A stretch of 64,000 nucleotides of DNA. Origin: Alphaproteobacteria bacterium (lineage in GTDB: Bacteria > Pseudomonadota > Alphaproteobacteria > Rickettsiales > UBA8987). The position numbers were made by a program, and so were the translations under genes. Below, one piece after another: positions 2,377 through 58,151 of this stretch (its first letter is position 1; each line of letters opens with the position of its first letter). The stretch lies in the NCBI GenBank assembly GCA_031426355.1, contig JANPLD010000010.1:14968-78967 (forward strand), in the 5' to 3' direction. The notes beneath the pieces are model-generated. The model did no database searches, was not told where the DNA came from, and saw only the letters and a list, made by a program, of their open reading frames with translations.

Positions 2377-2482
2377 ATTTCCCTCTATTATATAATTTAA
2401 GGAACAATACATTCAGGTTTTTGCGAAGTAAATAAATTAAACCATTTCGGTTTTTTTATTTTATTTTGATTTATCCCTGTGC

Positions 2483-2851
2483 TTAGTTTTCTTCAGTGAT
2501 AATGGAGCGCAAAAGATTTTTAACCGCATCCATTTTATTTTTACTAATATTTGAAAGCAACAAGGCAATCTCCTCGGAGTCTTCCGAGATATAATTTTTA
2601 CCATCTTCCCTTAAGACACTTTTTACATCTAAATCATTATAGAAATAATTGATATCCACTTTTAAGATTTTAGATATCTCACTCAGGCGTGATGCGGTGA
2701 TTCTGTTTATTCCATTTTCATATTTCTGTAATTGCTGGTGAGTAATGTGTAATTTATGTGCAAGATCCTTTCTTGTAAGGCGTAATGCCTTTCTTGCTTT
2801 CACTATCTTTTCCCCAATAGCTATGTCTAACTCAGTAATAGTTTTTGCCAT
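2483..2851 (-). CDS. XRE-family helix-turn-helix transcriptional regulator
   Basis: HTH_3-like segment LRLTRKDLAHKLHITHQQLQKYENGINRITASRLSEISKIL in the N-terminal half, followed by an uncharacterised ~50-aa C-terminal tail. Confidence 0.8.
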   Translation of the reverse strand: MAKTITELDIAIGEKIVKARKALRLTRKDLAHKLHITHQQLQKYENGINRITASRLSEISKILKVDINYFYNDLDVKSVLREDGKNYISEDSEEIALLLSNISKNKMDAVKNLLRSIITEEN

Positions 2852-2890
2852 ATATAATTAAAAGTTAAATTTCCCTTAATTTTATTATAA

Positions 2891-2905
2891 GCTTTCTTGG
2901 TGCCA
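2891..2905 (-). promoter_or_regulatory. Candidate sigma-54 (-24/-12) promoter upstream of the XRE gene
   Basis: The minus strand reads TGGCAC-CAAGA-AAGC. The -24 box is perfect and the GG-N10-GC spacing is correct, but the -12 box is weak. The element ends 40 nt upstream of the ATG at 2851. Confidence 0.2.
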
Positions 2906-3120
2906 AATTTTATTAAGAGATAACCCATTGATTAATATGGGTAGAAAAAAGTTAAAATTTTAATAAAAGTAAATTATTTCACACTTCTGTTCGAAAATGC
3001 ATAACTGCAAGTTATTGCATGTTCTACTTTGGGTTAATTACCAAAATGAGAAATTCATTTTGGTTCAATTAATATAGGTTGTAATTCTTTTTTAAAAAGA
3101 GCCAGATTAGGCAATATATT

Positions 3121-3149
3121 AAAAGGCTGGGAACAAATCCTAGCCTTTT
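3121..3149 (-). terminator. Hairpin directly downstream of serA (A/T-flanked, potentially bidirectional terminator)
   Basis: AAAAGGCT (3121-3128) pairs perfectly with AGCCTTTT (3142-3149), plus an inner GG/CC pair. It lies 12 nt past the serA stop. Confidence 0.45.
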
Positions 3150-3161
3150 GAATATTAAAAA

Positions 3162-4739
3162 TTAAAACTTTAAAGCTTTAGCTTTAAGAACATTAGGAAG
3201 TTCAGCAAGCTTTTTAACTGTTTCAGCAGATACATCATTATCAACTGCAACAAGCGCAACCGCCTGACCGGACTTTTTATCATTCCTGCCTAAATGGAAG
3301 TTTGCGATATTAACTTTATTATCACCGAGGATTTTACCAATGCCACCAATAAGGCCTGGTTTATCTTCATTCTCAATATAAAGCATAGTAGGAGAGAATG
3401 ATGCTTCAAGGTTCATTCCGCCAACCTGCGCTATACGCGGCTCACTATTAAATATCGTTCCTTTGAAAACAAATTTTTGTCCGCCGGCTTCAAGTGTTAC
3501 TGTAACAAGTGTTTCATAATGTGAGGCAGATGAATTTTTGCTTTCCGTAACTTTGATGTCGCGCTCTTTAGCAACAACAGGCGCGTTAACCATGTTTACA
3601 GTTTCAACAAAGTTCTCAAGTATACCTTTAAGTATTATACTTGTGATAGGCTTAGTGTTAAGCGCCGCAACCGTACCTTCATATTCCAGCGTAATTTTAT
3701 TTATTCCACCTTCAACTATCTGCCCTGCTAATTTGCCAAGTGATTCACCAAGTTTGAGGTAAGGATTTAATTTTGCCGCATCTTCAGCCGATACCGATGC
3801 AACATTCACCGCGTTAGTGATGGAACCTTTCGTAAGGAAATCACAAATTTGCTCAGCAACCTGAACAGCTACATTTTCCTGCGCTTCTGCAGTTGATGCA
3901 CCTAAGTGAGGGGTACATACAACTTGCTCTAATCCAAAGAGTGGGTTTGTAGTCGCTGGTTCAGTTTCAAATACGTCAAAACCTGCGCCTGCTATATGGC
4001 CGGATTTTATAAGTTCTGCCAATGCCGCTTCATCAACTAGGCCGCCGCGCGCGCAGTTAATAATATAAACGCCTTTTTTGGTTTTAGGCAGAGTATCTTT
4101 TGAAAGTATATTTCTTGTAGAATCATTTAATGGAGTGTGAAGGGAAATGAAATCCGCTCTTTTGAGTAGATCTTCAAGTGAAACTTTTTCAAGGTTAAGG
4201 TCTTTCGCTTTTTCATCAGAAAGATATGGATCATAAACCACAACTTTCATTTTAAGGCCTTGCGCCCTGTCAGCTACTATAGAGCCTATATTACCGCAAC
4301 CGATCAATCCCAATGTTTTAAACGCCAGTTCAGAACCCATGAATTTATTCTTTTCCCATTTACCTGCATGGGTAGATGCACTTGCTGCGCCAAGTTGACG
4401 AGCCGTTGCGAACATAAGCGCTATTGCATGTTCAGCTGTAGTGATGGAGTTACCAAAAGGTGTATTCATCACGATAACACCTTTAGCTGTTGCAGATGGT
4501 ATATCAACGTTATCAACGCCTATGCCAGCTCTTCCAACAACTTTAAGTTTTGTCGCCTTTTCAAGTACTGCTTTAGACACTTTAGTTGCAGAGCGTATTG
4601 CCAGACCATCATAATCACCGATGATCTCAAGAAGTTGCTCAGGGGTCAGGCCTGTTTTAACATCAGCCTGTACGCCATTTTTATCAAAAATTTCCTTCGC
4701 TTGTGCAGACAGTTTGTCAGATATAAGAACTTTAGGCAT
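3162..4739 (-). CDS. serA: D-3-phosphoglycerate dehydrogenase (long form with ACT domain)
   Basis: 525 aa with the NAD-binding motif GLIGCGNIGS and the 2-hydroxyacid dehydrogenase signatures (NCARGGLVDE, TPHLGAST). The C-terminal ~130 aa look like intervening plus ACT domains. Confidence 0.9.
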   Translation of the reverse strand: MPKVLISDKLSAQAKEIFDKNGVQADVKTGLTPEQLLEIIGDYDGLAIRSATKVSKAVLEKATKLKVVGRAGIGVDNVDIPSATAKGVIVMNTPFGNSITTAEHAIALMFATARQLGAASASTHAGKWEKNKFMGSELAFKTLGLIGCGNIGSIVADRAQGLKMKVVVYDPYLSDEKAKDLNLEKVSLEDLLKRADFISLHTPLNDSTRNILSKDTLPKTKKGVYIINCARGGLVDEAALAELIKSGHIAGAGFDVFETEPATTNPLFGLEQVVCTPHLGASTAEAQENVAVQVAEQICDFLTKGSITNAVNVASVSAEDAAKLNPYLKLGESLGKLAGQIVEGGINKITLEYEGTVAALNTKPITSIILKGILENFVETVNMVNAPVVAKERDIKVTESKNSSASHYETLVTVTLEAGGQKFVFKGTIFNSEPRIAQVGGMNLEASFSPTMLYIENEDKPGLIGGIGKILGDNKVNIANFHLGRNDKKSGQAVALVAVDNDVSAETVKKLAELPNVLKAKALKF

Positions 4740-26629: not shown

Positions 26630-28326
26630 ATGTCAAAATACCAGGTACTTGCACGCAAATATCGTCCCAGAAAACTCTCTGAGCTTATCGGGCAGGATGT
26701 GCTGGTGCAGACATTATCAAACGCAATTTCGCAAAACAGGATTCCTCACGCATTCGTTCTCACCGGTATCCGCGGTGTCGGTAAAACTTCCACCGCCAGA
26801 ATTATCGCGCGTTCACTTCTTTGTATCGGCGCTGATGGTAAAAATGAAAATCCAACTGTTGAGCCATGCGGCGTTTGCCCTAATTGCCAGTCCATCACTA
26901 ACGATAACCATGTAGATGTTATTGAGGTAGATGCTGCCAGTAGAACAGGCGTTAATGATATCCGCGAGATAATTGATCAGGTGAATTATTCCCCGGTGAT
27001 GGGCAGATACAAAATATATATCATCGATGAAGTGCACATGCTTTCAAAAAGCGCTTTCAACGCGCTTCTCAAAACTTTGGAAGAACCGCCTTCGCACGTT
27101 AAATTTATTTTTGCGACTACTGAGGTCCGCAAAATTCCAGTAACTATCCTTTCAAGATGTATGCGTTTTGATCTTCCACGCGTTCCGCAGGATATTTTAA
27201 TTACGCATTTTGCAAAAGTAGCAAAGCTTGAAGAAGCTGAGATTGACGATGAAGCCATAAAAGTCATTTCTGATGCTTCTGAAGGTTCAGTTCGTGATGG
27301 CCTTTCCCTGCTTGATCAGGCGATAGTTGTTAACCTTGGCACAAAAGTTACTTCCGAAAGGGTTCGCCAGATGCTTGGTCTTTCAGATAAGGAAAAAGTT
27401 TTTGATCTGGTTTCAAAAATGCTGGTCGGCAGTTTTGAGCCTTCTCTCAAAATACTTTCTGAAATATATAATAGTGGCACTGATGCTGCAACTATCATCA
27501 AGGATATGCTAGATGTTACGCATAAGCTTTTAATCTATAAAGCCAGCCCAAACCTGCTTGACCCTAAGTTGGTTAGCGAAGCTGAAATAACAAAATGCAA
27601 AGAGATATTAAAAGATACTTCTCTGCCAAAACTTGCCCGCATGTGGCAGGTGCTGAATAAATCTATTGAGGAATCCAAATATTGTCCGAACGCCTTAATG
27701 GCGGCAGAAATGGCCGTTATCAAAAGCGCCTATACCGCAACTCTTCCAACACCTGAAGAAATAATTAAAGGCACCGCATCAATACCTGAAGCAAGTAGAA
27801 CGGAAATAAAAGAGAATAACGTTCAGTCTTTAAAGCAAAATATCCAGACCCCACCTGAAGAAGAATTATTCGACTCAGAAAAAAAAAGCCTTCTGATCTA
27901 GATTCTGGTTCTCTGGCAGTCACTCATGATATCCCTTCCACTGAAGGCCTAATGATATCAAGTTCCTTTGAGGAATTTGTTTCGCAGATTAAAAATGGTG
28001 GTGAGAACCTTATTGCTTCATGGTTGCAAAATATAAAGGTCGCAGAATTTAATACTGAAAAGCACATTATTAAAATTATAATGCCGGTCGATTTTTCATT
28101 TTTCTCACAAAAGGAATTTGTCGAGAAAGTTCGTGTTGTAACCGGCAATAACTGGGTTTTAGATGTGGTCGACCCCGGTTTTGTTACCAACGCAGATGCG
28201 GTGATTTCTATAAAAGAAAAGAAGCTGATTGAGATTGAGAATCGTAAAAAAGAAGCTATAAATAGTCCTATTATTAAACAGATATGCAATGAATTCAAAG
28301 GCGCAGAAATTATTTCCGTAGCTTAA
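26630..28326 (+). CDS. dnaX: DNA polymerase III subunits gamma/tau, interrupted: the 0 frame stops at 27901 and a -1 frame from the A9 run continues to 28326
   Basis: Walker A GIRGVGKTS, Zn module CGVCPNCQS, DEVHML, and sensor TILSRC. ORF 27952-28326 (-1 frame, open from 27859) has the shape of an alphaproteobacterial tau C-terminus (..FEEFVSQI...VRVVTGNNWVL). ybaB follows, as it usually does. Confidence 0.85.
27879..27887 (+). promoter_or_regulatory. A9 homopolymer: candidate -1 frameshift / transcriptional slippage site (or the site of a homopolymer sequencing error)
   Basis: The 0 frame reads GAA AAA AAA AGC, which contains the X_XXY_YYZ-type heptamer A_AAA_AAA. It is the only slippery sequence inside the 40-nt interval (27859-27898) where both frames are open. 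Confidence 0.5.
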
Positions 28327-44982: not shown

Positions 44983-45885
44983 CTATTCTTTGAATTCGAT
45001 TTGCGAAACTAAATATGGTTCTCTTCTGTCATACCAATTTTCTCTCACTTTAACAAAGAGAAATAAATGAATTTTTTTTCCCAGTATATTTTGCAGATCC
45101 TTGCGGGATTGCTCGCCTATTTTTTTTATCATTGAACCTTGCTTGCCCACAATTATACTTTTGTGCGATTCTGTAGATGTATAAATTGTCTGATGTATCT
45201 TTATATCTTTCTTCTCTTCATAAAGTTCCGTTTCAACATAGAGAGAGTAGGGAAGTTCCTCATTCAAATTCATGAATAGTTTTTCCCTCGTTATTTCCGC
45301 CGCTAAAAATCTTGCAGGCGCATCTGTTATCTGGTCTTCCGGGAATATCCAGTTACTATCAGGTAAATTATCTTCAAGATATTTCTCAAGGTCAGCAACA
45401 CCACCGCCTTTTAAGGCAGATATCATGAAGGTTTTTTCAAAATTACATTCTTCATTTAATTTCTGCGTATTCTCCAGAAGCTTTTGTTTATCAGCCTTAT
45501 CAACTTTATTAAGTACCAGAAGTTTTTTGCTTTCTATATTCTTTATATAATTAAGCACCAATTCATCATTAGGCTTAATGGGCTTACTCGCATCAACAAG
45601 GAAAATTATAAAGTCAGAACCTTCGATCGAGTTTTTCGCTGTTTGCACTATCGACTTATTAAGCTTGTTTTTTAAATTATCCTGAAGGCTGAAAATACCC
45701 GGCGTATCAACAATTATTATCTGTGAGTCACCCGATATTTTTATCCCAGTTATCCGGCTTCTAGTAGTTTGCGCCTTTGGTGAAACAATACTTATCTTCG
45801 CCCCTGTTATATAATTGGTAAGCGTTGATTTTCCGCTGTTAGGCGCACCTACGATAACCGTAAAACCGCATTTTCTTTTATTCAT
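44983..45885 (-). CDS. era: GTPase Era
   Basis: G1 GAPNSGKST, G3 DTPG, G4 NKVD, and a C-terminal KH domain (VGKQGSMIKKIG). Confidence 0.95.
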   Translation of the reverse strand: MNKRKCGFTVIVGAPNSGKSTLTNYITGAKISIVSPKAQTTRSRITGIKISGDSQIIIVDTPGIFSLQDNLKNKLNKSIVQTAKNSIEGSDFIIFLVDASKPIKPNDELVLNYIKNIESKKLLVLNKVDKADKQKLLENTQKLNEECNFEKTFMISALKGGGVADLEKYLEDNLPDSNWIFPEDQITDAPARFLAAEITREKLFMNLNEELPYSLYVETELYEEKKDIKIHQTIYTSTESHKSIIVGKQGSMIKKIGEQSRKDLQNILGKKIHLFLFVKVRENWYDRREPYLVSQIEFKE

Positions 45886-57737: not shown

Positions 57738-57780
57738 TAAAAACTATTCAAACGGCTCTTTCTTTTCCCCATATTTATGC

Positions 57781-57786
57781 TATAAT
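57781..57786 (+). promoter_or_regulatory. Candidate -10 box (TATAAT) for the tmRNA gene
   Basis: Perfect TATAAT ~8 nt upstream of the inferred start of the acceptor piece. I see no convincing -35 box. Confidence 0.3.
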
Positions 57787-57793
57787 ATCTATG

Positions 57794-58126
57794 CCTCGCA
57801 AGAGGATATGGTGATAAACGCTTTCTCGTAATAAGCACATTGGACCCGGGGGCGGTACCCGGCGGCTCCACCACCAGAAGATAATATTTGTCTTCTGCTG
57901 ATGGGGTCGAAATAGGCTTGACAGTTGCAGTAAAGGTTTAAGTTTTGCCCGGCGAGATATAGCCGCTAAACGTTTCGAAATCATAAATGCAAACGACAAT
58001 TTTGCAGTTGCAGCAAACGACAATTTTGCTGTAGCAACTCTTAAAGCTGCCTAGTTGATCCTCAATGAGGATCTAAAGGTGTTTTAGGAAAGGGGCCCGC
58101 GGGGGGCCTAGCAACAGAACCCCCGC
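57794..58126 (+). ncRNA. ssrA: Two-piece (circularly permuted) tmRNA gene: acceptor piece ~57794-57873, intervening hairpin 57874-57902, coding piece 57903-~58126
   Basis: The T-arm is CCGGG/GGCGGTA/CCCGG followed by CGGCTCC-ACCA (ending at 57873). GGGGTCG at 57903 pairs with CGGCTCC and includes a G3:U pair. The tag frame GCA AAC GAC AAT TTT.. (ANDNFA..) runs 57989-58051 with TAG at 58052. Next comes helix GATCCTC-AAT-GAGGATC, then the terminal hairpin GCGGGGG..CCCCCGC plus a T-rich tail. Outer boundaries are approximate. Confidence 0.8.
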
Positions 58127-58151
58127 ATATTTTCCATCTATAAAAACAATC

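Follow-up and report, generated by a model that had tools for sequence, protein, structure and literature searches.

A dnaX gene split at a conserved A9 run in uncultured Alphaproteobacteria: a probable programmed slippage site for tau

The DNA analyzed here is a stretch of 64,000 nucleotides (64 kb) from an uncultured alphaproteobacterium (contig JANPLD010000010.1, positions 14,968 to 78,967), referred to below as the window. It contains dnaX, the gene for the clamp-loader subunits gamma and tau, as two adjacent open reading frames (ORFs) in a -1 relation. The first ORF corresponds to gamma and the second to the tau-specific part, and the two frames overlap at a run of nine A's (A9). We consider it probable that this is one dnaX gene giving two products via a conserved programmed slippage site, with RNA polymerase most likely slipping on A9. 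We establish here the anatomy of the junction and show that 10 lineages keep both the run and the split, that the domain encoded in the -1 frame is under purifying selection, and that no stimulatory elements are conserved. The features of the junction are as follows.

26630..27901, + strand: dnaX 0-frame ORF, a 423-amino-acid (aa) gamma-like clamp-loader subunit (domains I to III), the predicted product of the unslipped A9 mRNA.
27856..27858, + strand: -1-frame TGA upstream of A9, which forces a frame change at or after 27859.
27879..27887, + strand: A9 slippery run, the putative recoding site, starting in codon phase 1 (G AA AAA AAA A GC).
27880..28326, + strand: tau-specific -1-frame segment, a linker and a DUF3646-type C-terminal domain; 148 codons plus TAA.
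27894..27896, + strand: +1-frame TGA, which would end the A8 and A11 products (421/422 aa, ..EKKAF / ..EKKKAF).
27899..27901, + strand: 0-frame TAG, the gamma-like stop, four codons past the AGC that holds the last A.
27952..27954, + strand: ATG opening the mechanically called 124-aa ORF; not conserved.

In the proposed mechanism, RNA polymerase would slip on A9 to produce mRNAs with varying numbers of A's. The A9 mRNA (and also A12) would give the gamma-like subunit of 423/424 aa, the A9 product stopping at TAG 27899. A8 and A11 mRNAs would give a variant of 421/422 aa ending at TGA 27894. In A10 mRNA (also A7 and A13), the upstream frame would be joined to the -1 frame, resulting in a tau of 564 to 566 aa with its C-terminal domain. 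The short form would be the default and tau the product of slippage, the reverse of the situation in Escherichia coli and Thermus.

The GC content of the window is 38.8%, and the A9 at 27879-27887 is its sole run of nine or more of A, T, G, or C. Among the 44 long ORFs of the window (16,725 codons), only dnaX has a run of this length, and AAG makes up 23% of Lys codons. The 0-frame ORF of dnaX ends with ...GAC TCA GAA AAA AAA AGC CTT CTG ATC TAG, in which an A_AAA_AAA heptamer is made up of the third base of GAA and the two AAA codons after it. In the -1 frame, the TGA at 27856-27858 is the last stop before the run; from 27859 this frame continues without a stop up to the TAA ending at 28326, and the ORF at 27952-28326 sits in it. 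A continuous reading of dnaX thus needs a frame change within 27859-27898, and A9 lies inside the 43-nucleotide (nt) overlap of the two frames (27859-27901). Addition of one A to A9 gives a fused protein of 565 aa that contains ..SEKKKPSDLDSGSLAVTHDIPSTEGLMISSSFEEFVSQIK.. and ..VRVVTGNNWVL... The remainder of the window consists of intact, densely packed ORFs with no other broken gene. Within the 64 kb, there is no disruption of many genes at poly-A or poly-T tracts, and dnaX alone is disrupted.

Both parts of the gene were assigned to DnaX by profile searches. The 0-frame protein has the Pfam domains PF13177 (residues 22-184; E 3.7e-42), lid domain PF22608 (192-234), and PF12169 (240-380; E 7.9e-36), and it scores 431 bits against TIGR02397 (dnaX_nterm; cutoff 250). 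The conceptually fused A10 product, and only that product, matches the alphaproteobacterial DnaX equivalog NCBIfam NF006585 end to end (residues 3-564; 625.3 bits versus a cutoff of 604). The -1-frame C terminus aligns with PF12362 over profile positions 4-114 of 114 but scores 20 bits, below the gathering score of 30.2; the C-terminal ORFs of relatives carry PF12362 matches. The initial annotation of this DNA had placed the split at A9 with a 423-aa short form, closed the -1 frame at 27856-27858 with the second ORF in it, and predicted that a -1 shift or one extra A would yield about 565 aa ending in an alphaproteobacterial tau C terminus. The coordinates all agree with ours, and the NF006585 match over residues 3-564 bears out the tau assignment. 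The A_AAA_AAA heptamer named there is likewise present, but its written form, "G AAA AAA AGC," had dropped two A's. An exact look-up of the 423-aa protein returned no match, and tblastn found no second dnaX in the window.

A protein search was run with the fused DnaX, and locus DNA was compared for P0002-P0005, P0018, P0019, P0022, and P0023. The closest relatives were all short proteins of 396 to 456 aa. The same split was found in nine other lineages (L001-L004, L085, L087, L088, L089, and L066), with sequences drawn from Logan, NCBI, ENA, and JGI assemblies. In each, an A run stands at the homologous place, the 0-frame stop follows 1 to 5 codons on, and the -1 frame encodes the tau domain. 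L001-L004, L085, L088, and L089 have A9, L087 has A10, and L066 has A12. One additional A is needed for fusion in all ten split lineages, the window included, and none needs the loss of one A, so that both the position of the split and the direction of the frameshift are kept among orthologues. The split relatives share 46 to 87% protein identity with the window; their linkers are unalignable and the run is still there. One sequence was recovered in two independent assemblies (L089, ENA ERZ761610; L090, JGI 3300014832). Three further short-form clusters (P0020, P0024, and P0036), seen at the protein level only, end right after KK. An alignment of dnaX from related genomes had been proposed in the initial annotation as a check on a recoding site at which tau needs a shift. 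With the split and the A run kept in nine other lineages and the -1-frame domain under purifying selection, the reading of the junction as such a recoding site is supported.

Other searches added little to this set. A scan of metagenome contigs with an alignment of the C-terminal part gave no new loci, and a scan with a domain III alignment found only the L089 contig again. A single-sequence search of protein representatives gave 9 matches, 6 of which were short orphan C-terminal ORFs. The genome contig scan with the fused protein was dominated by the universal YIIDEVHM motif and returned only distant Alphaproteobacteria. These served as a control set, from which L045 and L066 were taken.

Two of the split loci depart from A9. 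In L087 (A10 at 3693-3702), the -1-frame TGA overlaps the first A and one more A is still required; judged from this locus, run length can drift while the relation of one missing A stays. L066 (3804-3815; JBJLFU010000015.1, "Paracoccaceae bacterium LRMED-264") has A12; a 0-frame TAG comes one codon after it, and the -1 frame encodes the tau C-terminal domain at 3805-4176. The GC content of this locus is 37%, which is odd for its Paracoccaceae label. Another relative, GCA_033762595.1, is named "Rickettsiales bacterium," and the placement of the clade is loose.

Several observations bear on translation of the -1-frame segment from the run. In 9/9 loci (L066 left out), no stop interrupts the -1 frame between the run and the conserved domain, over spans of 27 to 77 codons. 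The joint chance of this is about 1e-13, an overstated figure in that related loci are treated as independent, although the linkers are divergent. Across the split loci, the -1 frame is closed 17 to 38 nt upstream of the run. No start codon is shared. L001 has Arg at the position of ATG 27952, and its first ATG, at codon 68, already falls within the domain; the -1 ORF lacks ATG altogether in L003, L004, and L085; and the called starts of the orphan ORF are scattered over more than 100 codons. A scan for promoters and terminators between the two ORFs of dnaX found nothing above background. Between the window and L001, codon differences from the run to ATG 27952 comprise 8 synonymous and 7 non-synonymous changes, and those in the C-terminal domain comprise 42 synonymous and 22 non-synonymous changes. 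By these codon comparisons, the -1-frame domain is under purifying selection. The evidence from reading frames and starts says that the downstream part is translated from the run, and ATG 27952 is probably not a true start codon.

To characterize the junction itself, we aligned 12 loci, namely, the window, 8 split relatives, and 3 full-length relatives described below. Only the nine A's and, two bases further on, a single C are the same in every locus; L087 has one extra A. Given this invariance and the lack of any such run in the other long ORFs of the window, the run is not a chance feature. The residues beside the Lys pair vary (E or Q before; S, T, or N after, in the 0 frame), yet the codons always extend the run to nine A's, and AAG interrupts it in no lineage. 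This pattern indicates that selection on the dnaX junction acts at the nucleotide level. RNAalifold found 0 consensus pairs in the 12-junction alignment. Folds of the 60 nt downstream gave z-scores from -1.7 to +1.25, no more stable than shuffled sequences and with no hairpin in common, and no Shine-Dalgarno (SD)-like motif recurred upstream of the run among the aligned junctions. A9 is the length at which slippage by bacterial RNA polymerase becomes efficient, and it is the demonstrated signal of Thermus dnaX, where it affects about 50% of product (PMC1088944). An A_AAA_AAA heptamer would constrain only 7 of the 9 A positions. Transcriptional slippage is therefore favored, because only the A's are invariant, all nine are kept, and there is no conserved hairpin or SD-like element. 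That the slip would occur in transcription and not in translation, and in what proportions the products would arise, we infer from these patterns.

The strongest competitor is programmed -1 ribosomal frameshifting on A_AAA_AAA, in which the mRNA faithfully carries A9 and, at the two Lys codons, some ribosomes move back by one base into the tau frame. We regard this as rather unlikely, although several points speak for it and weigh against slippage by RNA polymerase. The heptamer is a valid -1 slip site in every locus, in usable phase even in L085, where the run is in phase 0, and in L087 with its A10. Exactly a -1 shift is needed in 10/10 split lineages. The uniform need for one more A is what ribosomal frameshifting predicts, and it would also fit a bias of the polymerase toward insertion. 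Both mechanisms predict the same main product (..EKKKPS..) and hence the same junction peptide, ..EKKKPSDLDSGS... Transcriptional slippage, unlike ribosomal frameshifting, would in addition give extra-Lys variants (EKKKKPS from A13, EKKKSLLI from A12, EKKAF from A8). E. coli dnaX uses ribosomal frameshifting (-1), and Atkins et al. mention a Chlorobium candidate of reversed polarity with E. coli-like stimulators. RNA polymerase in AT-rich genomes, moreover, may slip less on A9 (PMC1088944). Also weighing against slippage, a second tau gene could lie outside the 64 kb covered. Against the ribosomal account, neither a conserved downstream hairpin nor an upstream SD-like element accompanies the run. 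In E. coli, A_AAA_AAA shifts far less readily than A_AAA_AAG (PMC5009743), yet no lineage has AAG. Conservation extends to the two A's beyond the heptamer, A10 and A12 are found as well, and the same A9 is retained in relatives with tau in frame. The initial annotation had put its emphasis on the ribosomal heptamer; with nine A's conserved and no stimulatory elements, that emphasis is less supported than transcriptional slippage. Ribosomal -1 frameshifting may nevertheless contribute alongside transcriptional slippage.

The remaining explanations require no recoding. The true gene might be A10 and a plain ORF, with A9 a sequencing or assembly error, as the initial annotation had allowed for in naming a homopolymer miscall the trivial alternative. 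One extra A does fuse the frames, and homopolymers are error-prone on some platforms. However, 9 other lineages show the same out-of-frame state in data of different projects, with two independent assemblies for one of them; full-length relatives also have A9 and not A10; and the rest of the window is intact, including undisturbed in-frame A8 runs in era and ybaB. The chance of such an error is virtually nil, and the recurrence of the split in independent assemblies of nine relatives effectively refutes it. A truly split gene, in which gamma and a separate C-terminal polypeptide are each translated on their own, the second from ATG 27952 or an equivalent codon, would agree with the separate DUF3646 ORFs of 68 to 173 aa that gene callers predict in relatives and with the weak GAAGG upstream of the ATG in the window. 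It is highly improbable given the scattered or missing starts set out above and a -1 frame that, in all loci, has no stop on the way back to the run but is closed just upstream of it; on these grounds, an independently translated C-terminal ORF was rejected. The ratio of synonymous to non-synonymous changes in the linker also fits translation in the -1 frame, a weak argument from few codons. Moreover, tau has to tie the clamp loader physically to the polymerase, a task beyond a detached C-terminal domain. Lastly, the -1-frame segment could be the remnant of a dying tau, or A9 and A10 could alternate in the DNA of subpopulations. Poly-A frameshifts do accumulate in reduced genomes, as in Blochmannia dnaX (PMC3017870), and long A runs slip in replication as well. 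We consider decay or phase variation very improbable: the C-terminal domain is kept in the -1 frame where the upstream halves are down to 46% identical, no other gene of the window is broken, and the consensus in each split lineage is always out of frame and never fused. With the domain conserved in the -1 frame and synonymous changes outnumbering non-synonymous ones, the pseudogene reading was rejected.

Beyond the split forms, the next relatives in the protein search (P0006-P0017; 48 to 56% identity) are full length at 531 to 628 aa, and ..EKKT.. stands at the corresponding position in every one of them, most being compared as proteins. At the nucleotide level, the three nearest of these share with the window both the A9 and its codon phase (G AA AAA AAA A CT) at the homologous site of dnaX, and tau is in frame:

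L091:2583-2591, A9, tau in frame.
L092:1856-1864, A9, tau in frame.
L093:3675-3683, A9, tau in frame.

In these genes, at least one alternative frame meets a stop within 1 to 2 codons (-1 frame, KKNS* in L092 and KKNSA* in L093; +1 frame, KKKL* in L091). In L092 and L093, neither alternative frame stays open beyond 12 codons, and the -1 frame of L091 runs for about 30 codons. Judged by its frames and stops, this is the Thermus arrangement, and as far as could be found, a Thermus-like dnaX design has not been described before in Alphaproteobacteria.

A neighbor-joining tree was built from the N-terminal 375 residues with 200 bootstraps. Full-length P0014 grouped with split P0018-20 in 200/200 bootstraps, P0001-5 and P0022-24 were each recovered in 200/200, and all split forms as one group were recovered in 0/200. 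Since the split forms are not monophyletic, polarity flipped at least twice. L085 departs from the in-frame type by the phase upstream of the run and the window group by the phase downstream; the flips were thus independent events, and both arrangements must be viable. We lean slightly toward the view that A9 is an old, fixed slippage device by which an entire clade of uncultured, low-GC Alphaproteobacteria makes both tau and gamma, with the gene toggled at least 2 times via flanking indels. In that reading, toggling of dnaX polarity would be possible because slippage gives substantial amounts of both frames. If this is true, the evolution of the clade would demonstrate in nature the reversal of polarity called possible by Atkins et al. 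2016. It would also hold the first proteolysis-independent route to gamma in Alphaproteobacteria, unlike the ClpXP route of Caulobacter.

Poly-A runs were also seen in or next to dnaX of more distant Alphaproteobacteria. A metagenome-assembled genome of Marinicaulis sp. (L045; locus GC 56%) has A9 at 3658-3666, at dnaX residue 386, with tau in frame and a -1 frame that stops after KKKP; this is likely an independent slippage site for gamma. Bartonella tamiae (L076) has an in-frame dnaX A9 (KKK) at 3998-4006, near residue 500, which places it downstream of the site in the window. In a single-amplified genome of Pelagibacteraceae (L055), dnaX at 2468-3739 encodes 423 aa with almost no linker or C-terminal domain, and ybaB follows it directly; an in-frame A9 is present at 4176-4184 in the neighboring recR.

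The reversed arrangement is not new in itself. The initial annotation had taken it to be undescribed, but Antonov et al. 2013 (NAR 41:6514, PMC3711429) reported 17 two-ORF dnaX genes from 12 genera, 12 of the 17 with a poly-A of 7 to 10 (nine with A10 and the others with A9, A8, or A7). They proposed transcriptional realignment, with recoding needed for tau. Their Figure S3, of which 9 of the 12 genera are visible, includes Chlorobium, Flavobacterium, Cytophaga, Capnocytophaga, Coraliomargarita, and Prosthecochloris, and the visible hosts belong to Chlorobi, Bacteroidetes, and Verrucomicrobia. The review by Atkins et al. 2016 (PMC5009743) repeats this account. The window resembles these genes in its two ORFs in a -1 relation, junction poly-A, prompt 0-frame stop, default gamma, and predicted tau by recoding, and its flank resembles AAAAAAAAAGCC..TGA. 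Unlike the genes in the visible part of that study, which are mostly A10 and from other phyla, those described here are mostly A9 and from an uncultured alphaproteobacterial clade. Their sister lineages, in contrast with that account as far as it could be seen, keep the run with tau in frame and show repeated flips. No new mechanism is revealed here, and the arrangement has been known in other phyla since 2013. In the literature on Alphaproteobacteria, however, we found no paper describing a reversed poly-A dnaX, and this is apparently the first reversed-polarity dnaX in that class.

Other known systems share parts of the design. Thermus thermophilus dnaX (Larsen et al. 2000) likewise has a sense-strand A9 just past domain III, stops nearby in the alternative frames, and two DnaX forms. 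In that gene, the 0 frame gives tau and slipped mRNAs give gamma, whereas the window is reversed; the Thermus layout, with tau in an uninterrupted 0 frame, is met in L091-L093 and in Marinicaulis. The elements of E. coli dnaX (A_AAA_AAG, an upstream SD-like element, a downstream stem-loop, and 0-frame tau) are all absent from the window. As in the poly(A) frameshifts of Buchnera and Blochmannia, a poly-A tract kept over evolutionary time puts an essential gene out of frame, and dnaX of Blochmannia vafer and Blochmannia floridanus is itself an example, with rescue by slipped transcripts presumed and about 30% reported (PMC3017870). Those frameshifts, however, are genome-wide, affect many genes, and reflect AT bias and drift, and the Blochmannia dnaX site is inside the tau-only region. 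The site in the window falls precisely on the gamma/tau boundary and has been kept in lineages of either polarity, a pattern that suggests a regulated two-product device. Caulobacter crescentus also has tau and gamma forms from one dnaX, as predicted here, but its gamma arises by partial ClpXP proteolysis of tau with no slippery run, unlike the transcriptional or translational route proposed for the window.

These comparisons extend the reversed-polarity dnaX design to Alphaproteobacteria, where ClpXP proteolysis had been the only known route to gamma. The occurrence of both polarities around an invariant A9 in close relatives also provides a natural comparison set, which bears on the slippage efficiency that an essential product needs and on whether selection maintains the tau:gamma ratio. 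Annotation is affected as well. In all relatives with a called C-terminal ORF, the gene calls consist of a "gamma/tau" ORF and an orphan DUF3646 ORF, and these should be replaced by one dnaX with a slippage exception.

A few other features of the window and its relatives were recorded. The era GTPase gene (44983-45885, - strand) is an intact ORF with two in-frame sense-strand A8 runs, which appear as T8 on the + strand at 45072-45079 and 45120-45127. ARAGORN, run on the whole 64 kb, found no transfer RNA (tRNA) or transfer-messenger RNA (tmRNA) genes. A two-piece (permuted) alphaproteobacterial tmRNA gene is present at 57755-58129 (+ strand; Rfam RF01849, 193.7 bits), and this match supports the alphaproteobacterial origin of the window. 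The gap between thiL and dnaX is 64 nt in the window, without inserted toxin-antitoxin genes; such genes do lie between thiL and dnaX in L002 (2143-2885; PIN/UPF0175) and in L003 (2526-2912; PemK).

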